Below are positions 2,968-58,631 of a DNA stretch of 64,000 nt, piece by piece. Below the pieces are notes generated by a model. That model saw only the letters and a program-made list of their open reading frames with translations, was not told the DNA's origin and ran no database searches. The stretch is from a virus. Position 1 is the first letter of the stretch. Each line of letters begins with the position of its first letter. Where the stretch lies: positions 1 through 64,000 of the IMG/VR virus record IMGVR_UViG_3300042384_000211, one strand, 5' to 3'. The position numbers and the translations under genes were made by a program.

Positions 2968-3417
2968 TTATAGTTTTTCTAACAGCCAAATGTAAAATGG
3001 AGTTGAAAATTTTAGTATATAAGTACCATTCCACCCAAGATTTACACATTGATCTAAATGATTAATAGTTTCGCCTTGGAATTCATGTGGTTTGTCTAAA
3101 ATATAAGTAGCATCCCAACATAGGCTGCCTAAACTTATGTCATCAATGATAATGTCTTCAATGTTGAGCAACATGTCTTTGATCACTTCGTCGTCAACTA
3201 CCTTGGTGTCTTGATCTGTTTTATTTTCTAAACGTACCTTTAGTTGATGACTACCTTCATCTAGTTCACGTTTGAAACTAATAGGTTGCGGTACATTAGG
3301 TTCAGCTATTTCAGACTGCACTACAACATGATCGTCTACCCAAACAGAAAACTGGGGCTTTTTGTCCCAGTATGTTCCGCTTAATACTACTTCAAAGGTA
3401 AGCCTTTCTTGTGACAT
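2968..3417 (-). CDS. Hypothetical protein
   Basis: 149 aa, start overlaps the upstream stop. Confidence 0.7.
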   Translation of the reverse strand: MSQERLTFEVVLSGTYWDKKPQFSVWVDDHVVVQSEIAEPNVPQPISFKRELDEGSHQLKVRLENKTDQDTKVVDDEVIKDMLLNIEDIIIDDISLGSLCWDATYILDKPHEFQGETINHLDQCVNLGWNGTYILKFSTPFYIWLLEKL

Positions 3418-4470: not shown

Positions 4471-6780
4471 TTATAATACAATATAACCGTGTTCGTCAAC
4501 TGTTTTATCTTCTAACAACTCCACAGTCACCGGTGGAATAACAATAAATTTTACCTGTTCATCGGCCCAGTCTACAGTAACAACACTGCCTTGGACCATA
4601 TGTTCAAACAACATTTTCTTACTTAACGGAACTTTAATAAGCTCATTGATCTTACGTGACAGCGGACGTGCGCCCATTGCAGGTTCGAAACCGACTTCTG
4701 TTAGATGATCAATCAATGATTCGGTAGCACGTAGTTTGATAGATTTTTCAGCTAACAGTAAGTTAAGTTCATTGATAAACTTAACAACAATTTTTTTCAT
4801 TGAAATTTTGTTTAGGCTATTAAACTTAACCACAGCATCTAAACGATTACGGAACTCTGGGCGGAAGAATTTCTTAACAGCTTCATCGTCTTCACCCGTT
4901 TTGGCCAGATCACGACCAAAGCCAATGTTGTTACGCTCATTGTCTGCAGCACCTAAGTTTGACGTTAAGATTAAGATTGCGTTACGGCAGTCTGCTTTCT
5001 TACCATTGGAACCTGTGATAGTACCTTCATCCATGATCTGTAACAGCAAGTTACTGATATCTGGGTGAGCCTTTTCGATTTCATCTAGCAAGATAATTGA
5101 GTGTGGATTACGTTCAACTTCACTGATTAGTAAGCCGCCGCCTAAGTTGCCATCTTCGTAGCCTACATAGCCCGGAGGAGCACCAATAAGTTTAGCCATG
5201 GCATGTTTTTCTTGATACTCACTCATGTCAAAGCGGATTAGTTTCATACTAAGATTTTCACTTAGTAGTTTACATAGTTCTGTTTTACCAGTACCTGTTG
5301 GGCCTAAGAACAAGAAGTTGCCTACAGGTTTGTTATGTGCTTTCATTCCAGCCTTGGCTACATAGATCTTTTCTAATACTTCTTCGACTGCTGAGTCTTG
5401 CCCATACAAACGATCTTTGATAGTTGATTCTAAGTTAATCAAGTTCTCGCTGGCTTTTTCGCTGACCAAGTTCTCTTTAGGGATCTTAGTGGCTTTAGCA
5501 ATGGTGTCAACAATAGCATCTTTGTCCACAATAAAGTCAGCATTCTTAATTTTTAATCTAGCGCAGCTCATGTCAATTAGGTCAATGGCTTTGTCTGGTA
5601 ATCGTTTGTCTGTTTGATAGCGCATACTTAAATCTACAGCAGCTTCGATAGCTTCGTCTGCAATGGTACCACCGTGGAATTTTTCAAAGTGCTCACGTAG
5701 GCCTGTTAAGATTTCTTTGGCAATGTCTGCGCTTGGTTCGTCAATGTTTAGTTTGTAGAAACGACGCATTAGAGCACGATCTTTTTCAAAGCTCTGAGTG
5801 TATTCTTCGTAGGTAGTTGAGGCAATAACTTTGATTGTGCCGCGGCTTAGAGCTGGTTTAATCATGTTGGCAAAATCTACACTACTTGAATTACCAGAAC
5901 CTGCACCCTGCATTTGATGTGCTTCGTCGATGAATAAGATAGTTTTGCCTTTTTCAGCTAGTGCAGCTAATATATCTTTGAGTTTTTCTTCAAACTCACC
6001 GCGATACTTACTGCCAGCTAACAAATTGCCTATTTCTAAATTGTAGACTGTGTATTCTTTAAGATACTCAGGAACTAGACCGTGAACAATTTTGTGTGCA
6101 AGACCTTCTGCAATAGCAGTTTTACCTACGCCTGGATCGCCAATCATTAGCACATTTGATTTATGACGGCGTGCCAAGACCTGCGCGATTTCTTCAAGTT
6201 CGTATTCGCGTCCAATGACTGGATCTATCTTGCCTTCATTGACCTGCGTGTTAAGATTAGTGCAATATTCGTCTAATATTTGCTCTGATCGATCTTTCTT
6301 AGGTCTATTAGATTCTTTTTTAGTAGCAGACACTAATCTATCTTTATTTTCTTCAGCATAGTATTCTATAAATTGCTTACGATTAATACCATATTTTACT
6401 AAAAAGTATGCCGCGTAACTATTAGTTTCTTGACTAATACTTAGATATAAATCAACAGGCTCCATTTGATCACGAGCACTAAACAGTACCTGAGTAAAAG
6501 CTCGATTAAATACTCTTTCTAAACTGTGTGTTCGTTGTGGTGCAAGATCTTCTTTTTCTGTATTAATTAGATGTTCTTGTTTTCCTAGGTAATCATAAAG
6601 ATCACGTAAAAGATCTTCGACCTCAATACCATAATCGTTTAATGCTTTATTGAAATTTCTAAATTCAACCAATGCTATTAACAAATGTTCAAGAGTTACA
6701 TACTCGTGTTTGTAATCTTTGGCAATGGTACTTGCTGTTTCAATGATATGTTGTATTTCAGGATTTTGATTTAATGACAC
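4471..6780 (-). CDS. clpA: ATP-dependent Clp protease ATPase subunit ClpA
   Basis: Clp N-domain, two AAA+ modules (GDPGVGKT, GPTGTGKT), no ClpB coiled-coil M domain, IGF ClpP-docking loop (NNIGFG). Confidence 0.92.
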   Translation of the reverse strand: MSLNQNPEIQHIIETASTIAKDYKHEYVTLEHLLIALVEFRNFNKALNDYGIEVEDLLRDLYDYLGKQEHLINTEKEDLAPQRTHSLERVFNRAFTQVLFSARDQMEPVDLYLSISQETNSYAAYFLVKYGINRKQFIEYYAEENKDRLVSATKKESNRPKKDRSEQILDEYCTNLNTQVNEGKIDPVIGREYELEEIAQVLARRHKSNVLMIGDPGVGKTAIAEGLAHKIVHGLVPEYLKEYTVYNLEIGNLLAGSKYRGEFEEKLKDILAALAEKGKTILFIDEAHQMQGAGSGNSSSVDFANMIKPALSRGTIKVIASTTYEEYTQSFEKDRALMRRFYKLNIDEPSADIAKEILTGLREHFEKFHGGTIADEAIEAAVDLSMRYQTDKRLPDKAIDLIDMSCARLKIKNADFIVDKDAIVDTIAKATKIPKENLVSEKASENLINLESTIKDRLYGQDSAVEEVLEKIYVAKAGMKAHNKPVGNFLFLGPTGTGKTELCKLLSENLSMKLIRFDMSEYQEKHAMAKLIGAPPGYVGYEDGNLGGGLLISEVERNPHSIILLDEIEKAHPDISNLLLQIMDEGTITGSNGKKADCRNAILILTSNLGAADNERNNIGFGRDLAKTGEDDEAVKKFFRPEFRNRLDAVVKFNSLNKISMKKIVVKFINELNLLLAEKSIKLRATESLIDHLTEVGFEPAMGARPLSRKINELIKVPLSKKMLFEHMVQGSVVTVDWADEQVKFIVIPPVTVELLEDKTVDEHGYIVL

Positions 6781-6810
6781 TATATGATCCTTTTGGATAT
6801 GTTAAAATAT

Positions 6811-7641
6811 TTATAAGTTAGGTTTGATCGTTTTAAGTATGTTTAATTGATCTGCATCTAGTGTTGGAATTTTTATATGTACTGCTACTATCAAATCACC
6901 TCGGACATTGGTATTCATGTAATATAATCCTTGTCCTGCAAGTCCAAATTTAGCATTATACTGGCACGCCTGAGGTATTTTAACTGAAAATTCTTTGCCG
7001 TCAATGCCTTGAATTGTTCGATCGGCTCCAAGCATAGCATCAATTGCATCTATCTCAATGTTAGCAATTAAGTTGTTGCCATTAATTTCAAATCGTTGAT
7101 CGTGTATTACAGTAATAATAACATATAAATCGCCTCTAGTCAATGTCTCAAACATGTTATCTCCCATACCACTGTATTTGATAGTAGTGCCGTTACCGAC
7201 ACCTCGTGGAATGTTAACATCTATGGTGAATCTATCACCTTTGGTAGTTTGTACACTAATTGTGCGTTTTTGGTCGTTTAGGGTATCGCTTAATTGAATT
7301 GAAAGTTGTACCCGTAGGTCTTTGTTTCTGCGTGGCTGACGCTGTTGTTGCTTATGACCAAATCCCTGCTGGAAGAACTGGCCAAAAATATCATGTACGT
7401 CTCCACCGCCAAAGTGATACTCAAATCCACTGCCTTGATTGCCAAACGGGTTGGGATTATCGTGTTGTTGTCGCTTAACAGGATCAGTTAAGGTTTCGTA
7501 TGCACTTTGAATTTCTTGAAACTTAGCAGTATCGCCACCTTTGTCAGGGTGGTGTTTACTGGCCATAGCTCTATAGGCCTTTTTAATTTCTACTTCTGTG
7601 GCGTTTTTTCCTACGCCAAGGGTTTCATATGCGTCTGTCAT
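6811..7641 (-). CDS. dnaJ: DnaJ/CbpA-type co-chaperone without zinc finger; probable start MTDAYETLG at 7641
   Basis: J-domain with HPD motif, G/F-rich region and DnaJ C-terminal domain (GDLYV). Start moved because a promoter lies at 7649-7677. Confidence 0.88.
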   Translation of the reverse strand: MTDAYETLGVGKNATEVEIKKAYRAMASKHHPDKGGDTAKFQEIQSAYETLTDPVKRQQHDNPNPFGNQGSGFEYHFGGGDVHDIFGQFFQQGFGHKQQQRQPRRNKDLRVQLSIQLSDTLNDQKRTISVQTTKGDRFTIDVNIPRGVGNGTTIKYSGMGDNMFETLTRGDLYVIITVIHDQRFEINGNNLIANIEIDAIDAMLGADRTIQGIDGKEFSVKIPQACQYNAKFGLAGQGLYYMNTNVRGDLIVAVHIKIPTLDADQLNILKTIKPNL

Positions 7642-7648
7642 AGTAAGT

Positions 7649-7677
7649 ATTATACAATAAAAAAGGAGAACTGTCAA
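7649..7677 (-). promoter_or_regulatory. Sigma70-type promoter for dnaJ-clpA, overlapping a terminator
   Basis: TTGACA-17 nt-TATAAT; the ATG lies 7 nt after the -10 box. Confidence 0.75.
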
Positions 7678-7688
7678 GCTCTCCTTTA
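7657..7688 (-). terminator. Intrinsic terminator after the lysis operon
   Basis: GGAGAGC-ttgaca-GTTCTCC followed by TTTTTT on the minus strand. Confidence 0.6.
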
Positions 7689-7713: not shown

Positions 7714-7953
7714 TTAAGTTTTCTTTCTACGTAACGGTCTATTTGGATCTACAGCTACTGGTTCAGGTGTAACTTCTGCTTCTTGTGGTATTTCTACCAT
7801 TTCCTGACCAACTGCTATTTCCTGTACTTCGTTAACCACTTCTGGTTGATCTGCCGCAACAGGTACGTTATACTCTGGTGCACTTTGACTTAACCATACA
7901 GGCTCTGTTGAAGAACTTAATACCGGGGCGTCTTCAAACCCTGTTACTTTCCC
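7714..7953 (-). CDS. -1 frameshift extension of the holin (77 extra aa, acidic/Pro-rich with a basic end)
   Basis: Frame is open from GGG AAA at the slippery site to TAA at 7714. An in-frame TGA lies just upstream and there is no early start codon. Confidence 0.7.
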   Translation of the reverse strand, partial: GKVTGFEDAPVLSSSTEPVWLSQSAPEYNVPVAADQPEVVNEVQEIAVGQEMVEIPQEAEVTPEPVAVDPNRPLRRKKT

Positions 7954-8234
7954 GAGTCACCTGCTTCGATAGTTGCTACTTTTTCTTTACCACGTGTCCA
8001 AGCTGCAATACCTAAGATAGCACCCATGGAGATATGGTATAAACCACCGCCCTGTAATGTTAACGGTACCCACATACCTACTGCCTGTCCTGGATTCCAG
8101 TATTGAAGTAAGTTGAATAAGATTGGACCTACAATAAAGTCAAACCAAATTGTTGCCATATATGTTACGGCCATTAGTGGACGCCATTTACTGGTCATCC
8201 AATCTTCTGATTTTTTTTCTGCTGCTGTTGCCAT
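7944..8234 (-). CDS. Putative holin (resembles the GTA 3TM holin family)
   Basis: WRP motif, hydrophobic segments, LG..AWTRGKEK C-terminal motif; last gene of the lysis cassette. Confidence 0.7.
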   Translation of the reverse strand: MATAAEKKSEDWMTSKWRPLMAVTYMATIWFDFIVGPILFNLLQYWNPGQAVGMWVPLTLQGGGLYHISMGAILGIAAWTRGKEKVATIEAGDSGK

Positions 8235-8280
8235 ATCATGCTCCTAATTATTATTGTTATTATTATTTATTAGTTTATTG

Positions 8281-8490
8281 TTAACTTACTGCACTGGCTA
8301 CATCAATTAAATCATTGATTATTTCGTTTAACTGACTTAATTTTGCTAAATCGCCAGCTGCCGCTTCGATAACTTTGGTACTTTGTAAATCTTTAAGTAA
8401 TTCTTTATATTCAGTTAACGATAGCTTACCAGCGTTAAATTCTGCTGCTAATGCATGTACTTCCATTACTACATTGTCTACGCTACTCAT
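8281..8490 (-). CDS. Hypothetical protein in the lysis cassette
   Basis: 69 aa, ATGA overlap with the upstream gene. Confidence 0.7.
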   Translation of the reverse strand: MSSVDNVVMEVHALAAEFNAGKLSLTEYKELLKDLQSTKVIEAAAGDLAKLSQLNEIINDLIDVASAVS

Positions 8491-8900
8491 CTTGGTTTGG
8501 CTCCTATTACTGTTTTCATTGTACCTGAACTGTTTTCAATGTTGTTAAATTTAAGTTCGCAGTATTTTTGACTAACTTCGTCACCGCTATCATAACGATC
8601 TTTAAGACCTTTGGTAATGACAGCAAGTTCTGTGGTCATTGTTATTGTAGCTTTGTTCTCAGGAATACTTGCTGAATAGTTACGAAGTTCTATACTCTTA
8701 ACATAAACAGTGTCTACATAGGCTAACACTTCTTTAGTACCGCATTTAGTTACGCCCACTTGTGCTTGTGTATGGATTTGATTAACTAGACTATATTCGT
8801 TGCTGTCAAACTTAGCCATACGGTACGCATCAATTATTGTACTAATACTAGCACAACCTGATAATAGGACTACTAGACTAACTAAGGCCAAGCGTCTCAT
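8487..8900 (-). CDS. Lipoprotein in the lysis cassette
   Basis: Lipobox LLSGC after a basic, hydrophobic signal. Confidence 0.7.
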   Translation of the reverse strand: MRRLALVSLVVLLSGCASISTIIDAYRMAKFDSNEYSLVNQIHTQAQVGVTKCGTKEVLAYVDTVYVKSIELRNYSASIPENKATITMTTELAVITKGLKDRYDSGDEVSQKYCELKFNNIENSSGTMKTVIGAKPR

Positions 8901-9157
8901 TTAACTTCCTCGTAGATACGACGTTGTTCTTTATACCAAATGCCCCATGCTTCGTGTTTGGCCTGGCATTCATAGTAGGTGCTGTAGTTTTCACTTACAT
9001 TGCTCACAACATCACTTAGTTTGCTAGTGTCAGTTGGTAGCTGGGTAAGAACTGGACAATCTATAGCAAGTTCACTAGGAACGTCCGGAAACGGTGCTCG
9101 AACAGGCACCAGAGTTGAACAACCTGAGAGCAATAATACCGCTATTAGATATCTCAT
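8897..9157 (-). CDS. Putative o-spanin (Rz1-like lipoprotein)
   Basis: Lipobox LLSGC, Pro-rich segment, Cys pair; follows the Rz-like gene. Confidence 0.7.
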   Translation of the reverse strand: MRYLIAVLLLSGCSTLVPVRAPFPDVPSELAIDCPVLTQLPTDTSKLSDVVSNVSENYSTYYECQAKHEAWGIWYKEQRRIYEEVK

Positions 9158-9606
9158 TTAGTTTCCTCCTTGCTAGGACCTTCTGCGGCTTTGTTTAGTA
9201 TTTCAATAGCTTCTTTAGGCACTACACATTCACCGTTGATAATCTTTTCTTTCTCTACAATTTCTTTCTGTAGTTGGACCTGTACTTCTTTAATTTTTTT
9301 GATCTTAGTAACTACTTTAGTTTTGATCACTGTGTTTGTTTCTTGGCTTTTAACCACGGCCGCATCTACTTTGGCCTGTAATTCTGCGGCACGAGCACGC
9401 CACTGCATTTCAACTTCGTAGCCGCCTTTAAAATATACACCTGCCACTAACAGCATAATACCCACAACTTGTACTATTAATCGATAGGGTCTAAGGTAAC
9501 TAAAATTGAATACAAAGCCCAATAACGAAGCAATAACGCCAGCATAGAATACACAGTTAACAAACCCGTGTATAATACTATCTGGAATAAATGTCAATAA
9601 CCACAT
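9154..9606 (-). CDS. Putative i-spanin (Rz-like)
   Basis: N-terminal TM segments, coiled coil and C-terminal Cys; directly after the endolysin. Confidence 0.65.
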   Translation of the reverse strand: MWLLTFIPDSIIHGFVNCVFYAGVIASLLGFVFNFSYLRPYRLIVQVVGIMLLVAGVYFKGGYEVEMQWRARAAELQAKVDAAVVKSQETNTVIKTKVVTKIKKIKEVQVQLQKEIVEKEKIINGECVVPKEAIEILNKAAEGPSKEETK

Positions 9607-9607
9607 G

Positions 9608-10453
9608 TTATTCTCCTAGCATCTTACGAATAGTTGCCGGACCTACAATACCATCTGCTGTTAGGCCGTGTGCTGTTTGCCACGCTTTAACTGCCTTCTC
9701 TGTACCCGGACCAAACTTACCATCTGCTGTTTGTCCTAGAGCCTTTTGTACTGCTTTAACTGTGTCGTTATTGCTACCTACACGCACTGTTACGTACTCT
9801 GTAGCTGTAGCAGGTGCAGCATGCGACTCTGCTACGTGTCCGCCACCTAGTAAGTGTTTAGCTTCTTTGTAGTGCGTTGTACGGTCTTCTAAGCCAATTG
9901 TACCACCGTTAATACGTTTGGTCATCTTAACAATATCATCTGTGTCGCAGATAGCGTTTAAGCCATTTGTTTTCCAGAACCAGCATGCTGACTCGATAGC
10001 ACCATCTAATGTTTCTAAGTCTGCCACTGCTTCTTCTACAGTTAAGCCTACTGATTTAGCAAATTTAGTATAGTTGTCACGTCCTGTTAGTTGAATAGCA
10101 CCACGACCACAGAATTTAAATCCATCACCACTAGACTCTGGACCATTGCCCATACGTCCACCGTAGACTTTGTTAGCAATCTTTTCTGGTTGACGATGAT
10201 ATGGTTGAGCACTTGCTAGTGTAGGGAAGTATTTTTTAAAGATTTTGTTTAAACCCTCTGCTGAGTAGTTTAAGTTTTCTTTTAAGATTGTAAAGCCTGC
10301 CGACTCATGTCCGCATTGTGCTAGGAAACCTGCAGCACGATTAACTGTATTAATCTCGTACTTTTCAAATTGCTCTGTAAGTACTTCTGCTAGGTCTTCT
10401 GGATGCTTGTACTTTGGAAATATTGCTTTGATTATACCTGCTGTAATTTTCAT
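9608..10453 (-). CDS. Endolysin: GH19 chitinase/lysozyme-like domain plus peptidoglycan-binding domain
   Basis: FLAQCGHES, ENLNYS, GRGAIQLTG, INGG motifs; C-terminal ADGKFGPGT/ADGIVGPAT PG-binding repeats. Confidence 0.9.
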   Translation of the reverse strand: MKITAGIIKAIFPKYKHPEDLAEVLTEQFEKYEINTVNRAAGFLAQCGHESAGFTILKENLNYSAEGLNKIFKKYFPTLASAQPYHRQPEKIANKVYGGRMGNGPESSGDGFKFCGRGAIQLTGRDNYTKFAKSVGLTVEEAVADLETLDGAIESACWFWKTNGLNAICDTDDIVKMTKRINGGTIGLEDRTTHYKEAKHLLGGGHVAESHAAPATATEYVTVRVGSNNDTVKAVQKALGQTADGKFGPGTEKAVKAWQTAHGLTADGIVGPATIRKMLGE

Positions 10454-11572: not shown

Positions 11573-12307
11573 TTAGATGTACAGTCTAGCTTTCAAAAAA
11601 TCAGCAAGATAGTCTGCTACTATATTAGTTCCTTGTGGAGTAGTATGATGGCGAGTAAAAAGATCATCGTGTTCTTGCCAAACTCTCATCTTTTTCTGTG
11701 TTTGTGCGATAATTTCTAGCACAACACTAGGAACATCTTTATAATTTTTATTATTTTTTGTTAAGAACCTAACAACCCATGCAATATATGTGTCATCAAA
11801 ATAATAACAATCTTGATAATCGGGTACTAAAATTTCCGTCGAACTTTTTTTAGTATATATTAAATTAAATTCTTCAGCTAACTGAGTGTTGAGTTTACTG
11901 CAACCACCATGCAATATTATTTTTGCATTTGTCTGATTATTTAATTCTTTTAATTTAGTATAATGATTTATTAGTAGGTAGTGATAGATCTGTGCCATAT
12001 CCATGGTGGTATCGAGAGTTAATTGATTATCATCAATTTTTTGACTTTTATTTCGATGCCACGGAACAAATACGTTTCTTAACGGGTCTGTCTGCAGAAC
12101 AATAACAATATCATCGCTAGACAGTTCTTTTAATTTACTATGTAGGTTATTTAAAATTGTAAAGTTACTAAGTCCACGTTCACAGTGATTTATTACAGTT
12201 GTTTGAATTCTATTGGATAGATAACCTGCCAGATCGACCCCATCGAACTCATCCCGCACTGCGCATTTGTAACTATAGCCCCAACTATCACCAAAAATAT
12301 GAATCAT
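11573..12307 (-). CDS. SGNH/GDSL hydrolase-like protein
   Basis: N-terminal FGDSW, G.SN block and C-terminal HxT..G motif. Confidence 0.6.
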   Translation of the reverse strand: MIHIFGDSWGYSYKCAVRDEFDGVDLAGYLSNRIQTTVINHCERGLSNFTILNNLHSKLKELSSDDIVIVLQTDPLRNVFVPWHRNKSQKIDDNQLTLDTTMDMAQIYHYLLINHYTKLKELNNQTNAKIILHGGCSKLNTQLAEEFNLIYTKKSSTEILVPDYQDCYYFDDTYIAWVVRFLTKNNKNYKDVPSVVLEIIAQTQKKMRVWQEHDDLFTRHHTTPQGTNIVADYLADFLKARLYI

Positions 12308-12954
12308 TTAAGTCCTCTAGAACTCTTGGGTTGTATACCATGCCATACCTGCTGGTCTAACCAATATTCATCTACATGTTTAACATACTTGCTATTAGGG
12401 TCTTCCGTAATAAATTTAAGTATAGTGGGATTGTTGTAGTCTACGGGGAATTTTAGTAGATTACTGGCCCATTTTAAATAGTGATGTTTATGTAGGAAAA
12501 ATGCTTCATTATCTAAGAAATGCACCGGAAAATCGCTGGTTAGTAGGTGATTATAGTAGTATTCTTGTGCTATCGGTAAGGTCACTTCCTTACGTACACG
12601 TAACTGTTGTTCTACTTGAATATTTTGATCACGAACAATAATAGCAATCGTAACTTCTACTCCTAGTGACCTGGCTTGTTGAGCCATTTCTAAGATTTTA
12701 GGAGTTTGTCTAACTCCGTCATAGACAAATGGAACACTGACATTGGCCAACCAGTAATCATATCCGTCAAATGCAGCTGCTGTCAATCGTTCAGGATATA
12801 CCCAATACTCGGCAAACGGTTCTAAATCACTAGGCACCCAATATTCATCTAATAGTTGTTTCCAACCTCCCACTTGCGGATGTGTACTAAACACCCGACT
12901 AAACAAATGATTGCCCGATCCTTGCGGGCCTGTAATAATTAAAAGTTTTTTCAT
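12304..12954 (-). CDS. P-loop kinase/sulfotransferase-like protein (paralogue 3)
   Basis: ITGPQGSGNHLFS motif shared with two upstream paralogues. Confidence 0.6.
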   Translation of the reverse strand: MKKLLIITGPQGSGNHLFSRVFSTHPQVGGWKQLLDEYWVPSDLEPFAEYWVYPERLTAAAFDGYDYWLANVSVPFVYDGVRQTPKILEMAQQARSLGVEVTIAIIVRDQNIQVEQQLRVRKEVTLPIAQEYYYNHLLTSDFPVHFLDNEAFFLHKHHYLKWASNLLKFPVDYNNPTILKFITEDPNSKYVKHVDEYWLDQQVWHGIQPKSSRGLK

Positions 12955-13586
12955 GGTTTGGTTTTGAATGTCACTCCTAACTTGTTTCCATTATCTAATT
13001 CGTTGTGTTCTATGCCATGTATATATTTGGCATTAGCATCGTCTTCGAGTATGCTATCTAATCCGGGATCATTCCATGCAACAGGAATACTAAACGACAG
13101 AGTTTTAAGATAATCACAACGATACAAATACAGCAATTCATAACTTAGGAACGTTGGATTGGGTATAGTCTTTAATTGTTCTAAAAACATAAGCAATGTC
13201 GACTGTGTACGAATACGTGTTTGTTGATTATATAAGATAGTTTGATCGCGACCTATCACAGCAAATTCTACATCGACTCCACAGTCCTTTACTGCATTAG
13301 CAAAAGACATGACATTAGGGTTCCATACAGGATTTACGCCACTACCAATAATACCCAATGGACAGCTAATACTAGTAAAGTAGTAGTCACTTTGTTGCCA
13401 ATTAAATTCTTTTAATAAACTAGGATCACGCCAATACTGTGCAAAGGGTTCCGCAAAACGATGTGCTTCCCAATAATTTTCTAATAGTGTTTTCCACCCG
13501 TATACTTCCGGATGTAAGCTGAATATTTTACTCCATAAATGGTTGCCACTACCTTGTGGTCCTGTAATAATTAATAATTTCTTCAT
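12951..13586 (-). CDS. P-loop kinase/sulfotransferase-like protein (paralogue 2)
   Basis: ITGPQGSGNHLWSKIFSLHP motif. Confidence 0.6.
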   Translation of the reverse strand: MKKLLIITGPQGSGNHLWSKIFSLHPEVYGWKTLLENYWEAHRFAEPFAQYWRDPSLLKEFNWQQSDYYFTSISCPLGIIGSGVNPVWNPNVMSFANAVKDCGVDVEFAVIGRDQTILYNQQTRIRTQSTLLMFLEQLKTIPNPTFLSYELLYLYRCDYLKTLSFSIPVAWNDPGLDSILEDDANAKYIHGIEHNELDNGNKLGVTFKTKP

Positions 13587-14227
13587 GGTTTTTTCGTAAA
13601 TGTTACACCTAATTTATTGCCATTGTCTAATTCATTGTATTCGATACTATGTATATATTTCTCGTTAGCATCATCAGCAAGAATTTCACCAAGTCTAAGA
13701 TCATCCCAGGCTATGGGTATATTTAATTTTAAACTTTTTAAATATTCTTGTTTATATAAGTATAATAATTCATAACTTAGAAATGTTGGGTTTTGTAGTG
13801 TAGGTAACTGAGACAAAAATATAGATAATGTAGTTTCTTCACGAACACGATTTTGTTGATGTTGTAATATATTTTGATCACGCCCTATTACTGCAATTTC
13901 AACTTCTACACCTTGTTCTAATACAGTTCTGGTAAATCCCATGATATCAGCAGTCCACTGAACCCGATCGTTATCTTCAGTGAATCGATATCCTATTGGT
14001 AAACTAATACTAGTAAAGTAGTAGTCACTTTGTTGCCAATCAAACTCTTTAAGTAATTCATGATTACGCCACTGCGTACGGAATGGTTCCGAATGACGAT
14101 GTGACTCCCAATAGTTGTCTAATAGAGTTTTCCACCCGTAGACCGCTGGGTGTAGACTAAAAATTTTACTCCATAAATGGTTGCCAGAGCCTTGCGGACC
14201 AGTCAATATTAACATCTTCTTAGCCAT
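13583..14227 (-). CDS. P-loop kinase/sulfotransferase-like protein (paralogue 1)
   Basis: LTGPQGSGNHLWSKIFSLHP motif; very similar to 12951-13586. Confidence 0.6.
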   Translation of the reverse strand: MAKKMLILTGPQGSGNHLWSKIFSLHPAVYGWKTLLDNYWESHRHSEPFRTQWRNHELLKEFDWQQSDYYFTSISLPIGYRFTEDNDRVQWTADIMGFTRTVLEQGVEVEIAVIGRDQNILQHQQNRVREETTLSIFLSQLPTLQNPTFLSYELLYLYKQEYLKSLKLNIPIAWDDLRLGEILADDANEKYIHSIEYNELDNGNKLGVTFTKKP

Positions 14228-37989: not shown

Positions 37990-38166
37990 CTAAGATTTGC
38001 CCCAGTTGACCTGTAACCATATACGTTCCATTACGTAATGAAGTGCCGCTAACACTATATGAATTGCAATTGCTTGCCCGAGTCCTGTCCACAATGCTGT
38101 AATTGCCAAAGCCGCAAATCGATAACTTAGTGTGCGAGCAAGGGTTCGTATATGTGTTTCTGTCAT
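37990..38166 (-). CDS. Small membrane protein, DUF2061-like (58 aa)
   Basis: Hand-translated MTETHIRTLARTLSYR...HYVMERIWLQVNWG; ATGA overlap with the halogenase. Confidence 0.7.
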   Translation of the reverse strand: MTETHIRTLARTLSYRFAALAITALWTGLGQAIAIHIVLAALHYVMERIWLQVNWGKS

Positions 38167-39767
38167 TTATATATTGTGCTTTTTAGAAATGCGTAATGTG
38201 TAGGTAATGCATCGACAACTTTAACAGTTTGTGCTCGGTGTTCGCGCCATGTGTTCCATGTATTAGTAGCCATATCAACGGGTTCGCTGTACTGATTATT
38301 ATTAAAATCTACTCTGCTACTATCAATAACGTTGTGCCCCATGCCTGCAATGATATATGCTATTCCGCCCATGTCGTTGCCTACTACACGCGACCTATGA
38401 AGTCGATATGCAATGTCATTGTATGAACCTAATACGCCAGCTTTAAAATCATACATCTGTTGTGAATATGTAGTTTCTTCACTAACATGATTCCAGTATG
38501 CACTATCATTACGCATAGACAAGGCATAGTGCTGACTGATAAAGTCTTTAAATCCTGTAATTTGTTCACGAAATGCAAAATTAAATGCATCAACATCAAA
38601 CCGCGTAACTCTGCCATTGCGCATTTTGAGTAGATTTACCATCTTAATAATACATTCATGTGTAAGCATTAAACCAGTTGATTCAAGTGGCTCAATGAAT
38701 CCATTTGATAGACCTATACCAATAACATTCTTTTCCCAGGTACGTTCATGTACACCATGTTTAATAGCAATATGTCGAACTTCCATTGCGTCAACACGTG
38801 CAACATCTTGTACTGTCATTCTATTAGATTTTAAATGATTTTTAAATTGTTCTTCTGCTTGTTCTTTTGTTGCAAATTTACTTGAGTAAACATACCCCGT
38901 GCCAAGTCTATCCCACAAAGGGATATTCCAAACCCATCCTGCTTCAATTGCAGTACAACTTGTAACGCACTCCATTTCTTTATCTTTATCGATATATGGA
39001 ATAACACCTGCTACTGCGCTATCATTTAATAGTGTGTCATGGAATGATATGAATGGAACTTTTAATGTTTGTTCGAGTAACAGTGATCTAAAACCCGTAC
39101 AGTCAATAAACAAATCTGCTGTTAGCTCACCATTCTTTTCAGTTACAATAGTATCAATGTGTCCTTTTGCATCCATTGTTGCGGTTAACACGTTATCTAG
39201 AATATGTGTCATACCCACCGGCAAACATAAATGGTCACGTAGATAATTACCAAATAGAGTTGCATCCATATGATATGCTGTGTCGGATTTAAAATTAAAT
39301 CCACGTATTAGATGATCCTCATTCTTTGTCATTTTATTTGCATCAGTCATTATAACCTGATCGTGATAAAATTCTGCAAATGAATATGGATCAATATTAG
39401 GTAGTGTTGCGGCACCAATAAACCATTCCATTAGACCTCTGGGCTTATCAGTAAAGTCATATCTACCAAACGGGTAATGAAATACTTGTGGCTTTTCTGT
39501 TGGGTTTTCTCTAAAATCGATAAACTTAATTGATGTCTTATATGTTGCGTTACAGTGCTTCATCCAATCTTCATCTTTAAGACCAAGATAGTGAAGGAAT
39601 TCGTTTATCTGTCCGATTGTACTTTCGCCTACTCCAATTGTTGGGATATTGGGCGACTCGATTAGAGTAAGTTTAACGTGTGGTAATTGTTTTGATATAG
39701 CAGCCGCTGTCATCCATCCCGAACTGCCACCACCTACAATAGTTATTCTTTCAATTTTGTTTCTCAT
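38163..39767 (-). CDS. Flavin-dependent halogenase (tryptophan halogenase family)
   Basis: GGGSSG, GVGEST, catalytic-Lys region ATYK, FIDCTGF, WVWNIP and FIEPLESTG. Confidence 0.88.
   Translation of the reverse strand: MRNKIERITIVGGGSSGWMTAAAISKQLPHVKLTLIESPNIPTIGVGESTIGQINEFLHYLGLKDEDWMKHCNATYKTSIKFIDFRENPTEKPQVFHYPFGRYDFTDKPRGLMEWFIGAATLPNIDPYSFAEFYHDQVIMTDANKMTKNEDHLIRGFNFKSDTAYHMDATLFGNYLRDHLCLPVGMTHILDNVLTATMDAKGHIDTIVTEKNGELTADLFIDCTGFRSLLLEQTLKVPFISFHDTLLNDSAVAGVIPYIDKDKEMECVTSCTAIEAGWVWNIPLWDRLGTGYVYSSKFATKEQAEEQFKNHLKSNRMTVQDVARVDAMEVRHIAIKHGVHERTWEKNVIGIGLSNGFIEPLESTGLMLTHECIIKMVNLLKMRNGRVTRFDVDAFNFAFREQITGFKDFISQHYALSMRNDSAYWNHVSEETTYSQQMYDFKAGVLGSYNDIAYRLHRSRVVGNDMGGIAYIIAGMGHNVIDSSRVDFNNNQYSEPVDMATNTWNTWREHRAQTVKVVDALPTHYAFLKSTIYK

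Positions 39768-56715: not shown

Positions 56716-58631
<1,916 letters not shown>

Follow-up and report, generated by a model that had tools for sequence, protein, structure and literature searches.

A probable programmed −1 ribosomal frameshift in a holin-like gene of a phage lysis cassette, and relatives in which its polarity is inverted

A holin-like gene in the lysis cassette of uncultured giant phages was found to end at a slippery heptamer, G GGA AAG, which is followed by a pseudoknot and by a −1 frame that stays open for 77 codons. Comparison of relatives supports the claim of an earlier note on this DNA that the gene is read by programmed −1 frameshifting into forms of 96 and 173 aa. 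That ribosomes do slip at the heptamer is considered very likely, and the explanation taken whole, in which a pseudoknot-stimulated shift yields two membrane forms, is rated likely. Among close relatives the same pseudoknot also occurs with inverted polarity, the long form being encoded in one frame.

The window, that is the whole stretch of DNA analysed, comprises the first 64 kb (64,000 nucleotides) of a 140.8-kb virus record estimated to be 40% complete. The gene and its signals lie on the minus strand:
8241..8245, minus strand: Shine-Dalgarno sequence AGGAG, 6 nt 5' of the ATG (from sequence)
7944..8234, minus strand: holin-like ORF, 0 frame, 96-aa short form with two long helices in a helical hairpin (Pfam, PHROG, AlphaFold)
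7957..7959, minus strand: TGA closing the −1 frame upstream (from sequence)
7947..7953, minus strand: slippery heptamer G GGA AAG (conserved in short-form loci)
7942..7946, minus strand: 5-nt spacer including the 0-frame stop TAA at 7946-7944 (from sequence)
7909..7941, minus strand: H-type pseudoknot (covariation in 35 sequences)
7941-7938 with 7929-7926, minus strand: stem 1 of the pseudoknot, GGGT/GCCC
7936-7931 with 7914-7909, minus strand: stem 2 of the pseudoknot, TGAAGA/TCTTCA
7714..7947, minus strand: −1 frame extension of 77 codons, a low-complexity Pro/Glu/Val tail with the basic motif D-P-N-R-P-x-R-R-K-K at its end (selection, homology)
7662..7687, minus strand: intrinsic terminator-like hairpin that shares sequence with a predicted dnaJ promoter (7677-7649; 12/12 match to the sigma-70 consensus)

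The ORF ends TCG GGA AAG TAA, with the heptamer directly before the stop and in X XXY YYZ phase, as the earlier note had read it. Its account of the −1 frame is likewise borne out: the TGA shuts this frame just upstream and limits the shift to a 3-codon window, the open codons run from 7947 to 7717 with a stop at 7716-7714 (96 + 77 = 173 aa), no early start is present (the first GTG is codon 36 and the first ATG codon 49, neither conserved), and the terminator-like hairpin lies downstream. Only 0.4% of shuffles of the extension stay open, and of the 149 minus-strand ORFs of the genome this gene alone combines a heptamer at its end with a long −1 frame and a pseudoknot. No in-frame dual start was found at the ORF; a single ATG follows the Shine-Dalgarno sequence, and the ATG further upstream, at 8239, lies in another frame.

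Relatives were gathered by protein patterns that exclude the slip site, and a locus was taken as short-form when no more than 12 tail residues followed the RGKEK motif (68 loci and 58 distinct sequences, the window included). G GGA AAA or G GGA AAG lies at or just before the stop in 68/68 of these loci, and the −1 frame extends for 62-93 codons in all complete cases except one (L080). An X XXY YYZ heptamer before the stop together with an open −1 frame, as the earlier note expected of homologous holins, is thus the rule among short-form relatives. The Gly codon of the slip site is GGA in 58/58 sequences, against a background of 14%. The codon before it is GCG, TCG, CCG or ACG, encoding Ala in 37 cases, Ser in 17, Pro in three and Thr in one; its third position is always G, and such codons account for 0-21% in the gene body, where invariance is limited to 1 of 23 four-fold sites. 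The 0-frame stop itself is variable (TAA or TAG, 0, 1 or 3 codons after the heptamer), while the distance from heptamer to pseudoknot stays constant as the stop shifts position. Judging from this codon choice, the slip motif is kept beyond protein constraint and against codon usage.

A few sequences depart from the pattern. In L080 (1773-2030) the heptamer is intact, TAA stands at codon 5 of the −1 extension and one stem 2 pair is broken; the tail beyond the TAA looks intact, and the stop is either a recent or natural loss or a sequence error. Gene calling joins the upstream 69-aa ORF to the holin-like gene in P0029 and P0057, and P0034 enters the +1 frame past the slip site; as each is found on one contig, these three may be errors.

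The stimulator was examined in an alignment of 35 signal sequences. Stem 1 has invariant GGG and CC cores and begins 5 nt 3' of the heptamer; two registers are possible for it, and its core pairs are invariant. Its loop pairs with sequence lying about 10 nt farther downstream, forming stem 2. Both partners vary at five of the six pairs of this stem, where 93% of cells are paired, compared with 35-71% in slid controls. The covariation score of stem 2 was reached in 0 of 500 shuffles, although the cells are related sequences and not independent events, and protein constraint does not explain it because the changes alter the encoded residues. Both stems are short, at 4-5 and 5-6 bp, with about −4.5 to −4.9 kcal/mol for each on its own, and a pseudoknot of equal score follows 1.7% of random genome positions. 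No Rfam match to the pseudoknot was obtained at E values up to 5, and inspection of the relatives disclosed no obvious conserved SD-like stimulator upstream. The earlier note had drawn a hairpin here from ACAGG/CCTGT and TTGAAGA/TCTTCAA; its inner stem survives as stem 2 of the pseudoknot and its outer stem does not. The long hairpin is possible on paper, but its folding is not superior to that of shuffled sequence (z about −0.1), and in the outer stem 54% of cells are paired, with three of the five pairs broken in 21-29 of the 35 sequences.

The extension behaves as coding sequence. In 21 disjoint close pairs, with the pseudoknot excluded, changes at codon positions 1, 2 and 3 numbered 108, 92 and 245, and single changes in the 21 pairs were synonymous in 183 cases and non-synonymous in 87, a pattern that indicates purifying selection. 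Each of the other two frames has at least three stops across the extension. The tail is 50% identical to the in-frame tail of the long relative P0132 (E 9e-18), and the terminal D-P-N-R-P-x-R-R-type motif occurs in 53/53 relatives. It had been described as an acidic, disordered tail with a basic tip; the disorder and the tip motif (53/53) are the conserved part, while acidity holds here (14 D/E) and not across relatives (5-17 D/E).

Many relatives that are 80-88% identical in the core carry the long form in one frame, and in those having the pseudoknot-encoded residues Phe-Asn or Phe-Ser stands directly before these. In the first such loci G GGT TTT, A CCT TTT or A TCT TTT was followed immediately by a −1 stop and by the same pseudoknot. 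The prediction, made before further contigs were fetched, was that NNT TTT A[A/G] would stand in the other long forms and that Ser would be encoded by AGY. It held in 7/7 newly fetched motif-bearing contigs, with a 6-nt spacer and an intact stem 1 (L125 and L126 have a stem 2 mismatch), and the motif-less control L130 showed no slip signal. In all, the inverted type comprises 20 loci and 14 distinct junctions, and the motif, the 6-nt spacer and the same stem 1 are present in 14/14. Phe is preceded by Gly, Pro, Ser, Asp or Asn, in each case with a codon ending in T, and where Ser follows Phe its codon is always AGY. At these loci the long form would be the default, and slipping is predicted to yield a short form of similar length, with 10-16 residues (in one case 22) beyond the RGKEK motif against 8-11 in the forward type. 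For either polarity, gene callers annotate one product per locus.

Forward and inverted types interleave in the core tree (228 columns, unrooted), with about nine changes of which at least three are forced by well-supported branches; the tree is weak and does not orient the polarity change, and recombination, which is likely, could be an alternative source of the same pattern. Two inverted loci, L015 and L016 (about 3282-3340), have a pseudoknot that is strongly diverged yet fully compensated. Their tail tip also differs, ending PQPEL as in some non-shifting relatives, suggesting tail exchange via recombination.

More distant relatives (47-78% identity) in many cases have no slip signal and are short-only or long-only, so that two forms are not needed family-wide. 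Short-only L146, L136, L175 and L209 and long-only L141, L154 and L158 occupy the same cassette or dnaJ/clpA slot. The cultured homologues in PA5oct, Phosso and Atu_ph07 have neither an in-phase heptamer near the stop nor an open −1 frame. Tandem short and long paralogues replacing the frameshift were found in no locus, nor in the genome of record.

The 96-aa ORF is the last gene of a minus-strand block and is followed by the terminator-like hairpin, dnaJ and clpA. The upstream lysis cassette was delineated by profile matches (Pfam, PHROG) and synteny, and its genes follow in block order:
8281..10453, minus strand: upstream lysis cassette, whole extent
10453-9608, minus strand: GH19 endolysin with a PG-binding domain
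9606-9154, minus strand: i-spanin-like gene
9157-8897, minus strand: LysC o-spanin
8900-8487, minus strand: 137-aa putative lipoprotein
8490-8281, minus strand: 69-aa ORF

Spanins imply a Gram-negative host. The best cultured matches of a neighbouring virion gene are the jumbo phages PA5oct, Phosso and Atu_ph07, at 30-36% identity. In 48/48 forward-type loci the genes for the 137-aa putative lipoprotein and the 69-aa ORF separate the spanin genes from the holin-like gene, whereas some other loci (L015, L016, L130) lack them; neither product has a family match, and they are possible accessory lysis regulators. Downstream of the gene come phage dnaJ and clpA, in 52/52 and 15/15 of the shifting loci whose flank is long enough, as tested for dnaJ; in the window they occupy 4471-7641 on the minus strand, and GroEL is encoded at 56716-58335. 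The tail tip could be a candidate protease or chaperone signal. A perfect sigma-70 consensus, TTGACA-17-TATAAT, lies inside the terminator hairpin (window 7687-7649, minus strand), with the −35 in the loop, and comparable terminator/promoter overlaps before dnaJ recur among relatives; the late-operon terminator is predicted to serve also as the dnaJ-clpA promoter. Elsewhere on the minus strand are three tandem paralogous ORFs of 211-216 aa (12304-14227), with near-identical N-termini and a P-loop-like motif, and a tryptophan halogenase family gene (PHROG 2928; 38163-39767) amid tail-fibre-like genes.

It seems rather probable that the gene product is a holin. The short form passes the Pfam cutoff for PF11351 (GTA_holin_3TM) narrowly, at 28.3 bits against 24.8 (E 2.7e-6), and the match covers only profile positions 56-117 of 123. 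It also matches the PHROG 3427 holin family (E 7.8e-8), as do 51/52 relatives. In the AlphaFold model residues 4-46 and 60-90 form a helical hairpin (pLDDT 79); two helices are predicted and not three, with modest hydropathy (peak 1.6, about 1.1 in the second helix). ESM Atlas and Foldseek matches are to the GTA_holin_3TM family, the fold search returning only same-family predicted models, and the Pfam, PHROG, ESM Atlas and Foldseek results are one line of evidence, not four. Endolysin or spanin genes lie upstream in 63/63 shifting loci with enough flank (48/48 forward and 15/15 inverted), and no better holin candidate was found beside the endolysin in a genome that is only about 40% complete.

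These same data bear on a reading in which the frameshift is real and the protein is a virion-associated, assembly or envelope membrane protein made as structural variants at a set ratio, as with T7 gp10A/B or Lactobacillus phage A2. The homologue in the Pseudomonas phage PA5oct (33% identical) lies outside any lysis cassette and is annotated 'structural protein, ESI-MS/MS', those of Phosso and Atu_ph07 adjoin a DNA ligase gene and not lysis genes, cassette genes are missing from the surroundings of several non-shifting copies, and known phage frameshifts mostly concern structural or assembly proteins (PMC5009743). Set against the shared holin-family assignment and the constant place of shifting loci after endolysin or spanin genes, such a role is considered unlikely.

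Expression probably proceeds as follows. Ribosomes reaching G GGA AAG would pause at the pseudoknot 5 nt downstream, tRNA-Gly and tRNA-Lys would re-pair on GGG AAA, and reading would continue through Val-Thr-Gly-Phe to give the 173-aa product; non-slipping ribosomes would terminate at once and release the 96-aa form. By E. coli rules the level of slipping is probably between a percent and tens of percent. The two forms would share the two-helix membrane core, with a topology inferred as N-in/C-in, so that the long form would add a disordered cytoplasmic tail with a basic tip. There is perhaps an even chance that mixed tailed and untailed subunits tune oligomerisation, stability or triggering time, both being lysis-competent and neither a pure inhibitor.

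A strict holin/antiholin pair would make different use of the same two products: one of them would be lethal and the other its inhibitor, in a ratio set by the frameshift, as the dual start sets it for lambda S105/S107. Antiholins from the holin gene itself are established (PMC9636201), this gene has no dual start and no paralogue in the genome of record, and two forms are kept under both polarities. However, short-only and long-only relatives lacking slip signals are found in the same cassette or dnaJ/clpA slot, so that each form apparently works alone, and if it is a holin this makes a pure antiholin less likely than tuning by a cytoplasmic tail. In E. coli the best heptamer reached 54% with the IS3 pseudoknot and tetramers 0.26-5.6% (PMC4066793); the T TTT type, at 5.6% or less, would thus give a mostly long mix, unlike the forward type. 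These efficiencies indicate that the two polarities probably give different mixes, though host tRNAs may differ. The strict pair is accordingly held to be improbable, and tuning by mixed subunits is preferred.

Three readings without ribosomal frameshifting fare much worse. A separate small gene or re-initiation product, with no fusion, might use the GTG at codon 36, which in the window opens a 41-aa ORF, but no start is conserved in the −1 frame, several relatives have no start codon there, conservation begins at codon 1 and in-frame fusions exist; it is highly improbable. Equally far-fetched is a frame change by slippage during transcription or by readthrough of the stop codon: the site does contain short A or T runs and the stop lies beside a structure, yet the runs are only 3-4 nt against about 9 in bacterial examples (PMC5009743), and in nearly all relatives readthrough would end at a further stop within 5-13 codons, in one within 29. 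The +1 frame is likewise shut early in nearly all of them. That the break is an assembly error, a concern of the earlier note, or marks a gene in decay through a fixed 1-nt indel would be in keeping with the existence of in-frame long relatives, but is scarcely credible when the same layout and break recur in 58 distinct sequences of 77-99% identity from independent assemblies, with downstream selection and a conserved signal, and when the closest long relatives have their own slip signal.

The heptamer of lambda G/GT, G GGA AAG, is identical to the one described here. As in lambda, the phage ORF would end in a −1 shift that yields a C-terminally extended product at a set ratio, but lambda G/GT is a tail chaperone before the tape measure gene, whereas here the gene is a lysis-cassette membrane gene between the spanin genes and dnaJ, with a covarying pseudoknot and with polarity inversion among relatives. 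The lambda ratio is 30:1 (PMC5009743). In the IS3 family a slippery motif is followed by a pseudoknot 5-8 nt downstream, and both heptamers and U_UU.Y tetramers are used; G_GGA_AAG is among the three most efficient motifs in E. coli, and U_UUU is functional with a pseudoknot (PMC4066793). The present signal is of the same build (spacer about 5-6 nt), but involves no transposase, no Rfam match and no obvious conserved SD-like stimulator. The dnaX gene likewise gives a short and a long product (gamma and tau), and species with apparently reversed polarity are described (PMC5009743), making it arguably the best precedent for the inversion. It differs in using A_AAA_AAG with a stem-loop; here the inversion swaps the slippery motif (Gly-Lys to X-Phe) and keeps the pseudoknot, in phage genes 80-88% identical in the core. 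Dual-start holins (lambda S105/S107, phage 21 S68/S71, SPP1 24.1 and 26) also make two products per gene (PMC9636201, PMC6316719), but through initiation and with a few N-terminal residues of difference, as opposed to 77 C-terminal residues through putative recoding.

Reviewed phage frameshifts concern tail chaperones, extended capsid or tail subunits, or a repressor variant (PMC5009743), and holin control is described as dual starts or separate antiholins (PMC9636201, PMC6316719). Holins are not mentioned in the accessible parts of the 2016 frameshifting review (PMC5009743), nor frameshifts in the holin review (PMC9636201). No frameshift report was found for the PF11351/PHROG 3427 family, and a full-text literature search, with most subscription papers outside it, returned by title or abstract no paper on a −1 frameshifted holin. 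The mechanism would be an ordinary −1 frameshift, whose motif most resembles that of lambda G/GT, its stimulator that of IS3 and its polarity reversal that of dnaX; new are the gene context, a lysis-cassette membrane gene, and the relatives of inverted polarity.

Bacterial pseudoknot stimulators sampled this well are rare, and the one at this locus shows natural covariation and is missing from Rfam. The locus is also a clear case of reversed polarity between near relatives, and its signal, of about 50 nt, is testable in E. coli without phage culture. More tentatively, lysis timing in this giant-phage lineage may be set by frameshifting in the holin gene, the pseudoknot acting as a portable dial and the default form having been flipped repeatedly by exchange of the slip site alone. 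If true, this would be a new mode of lysis control, tied to translation conditions such as the supply of tRNA-Lys or tRNA-Phe. With this new holin regulation, the relatives would form a natural allelic series from short-only through mixed to long-only, which would link frameshift efficiency to latent period and burst size.
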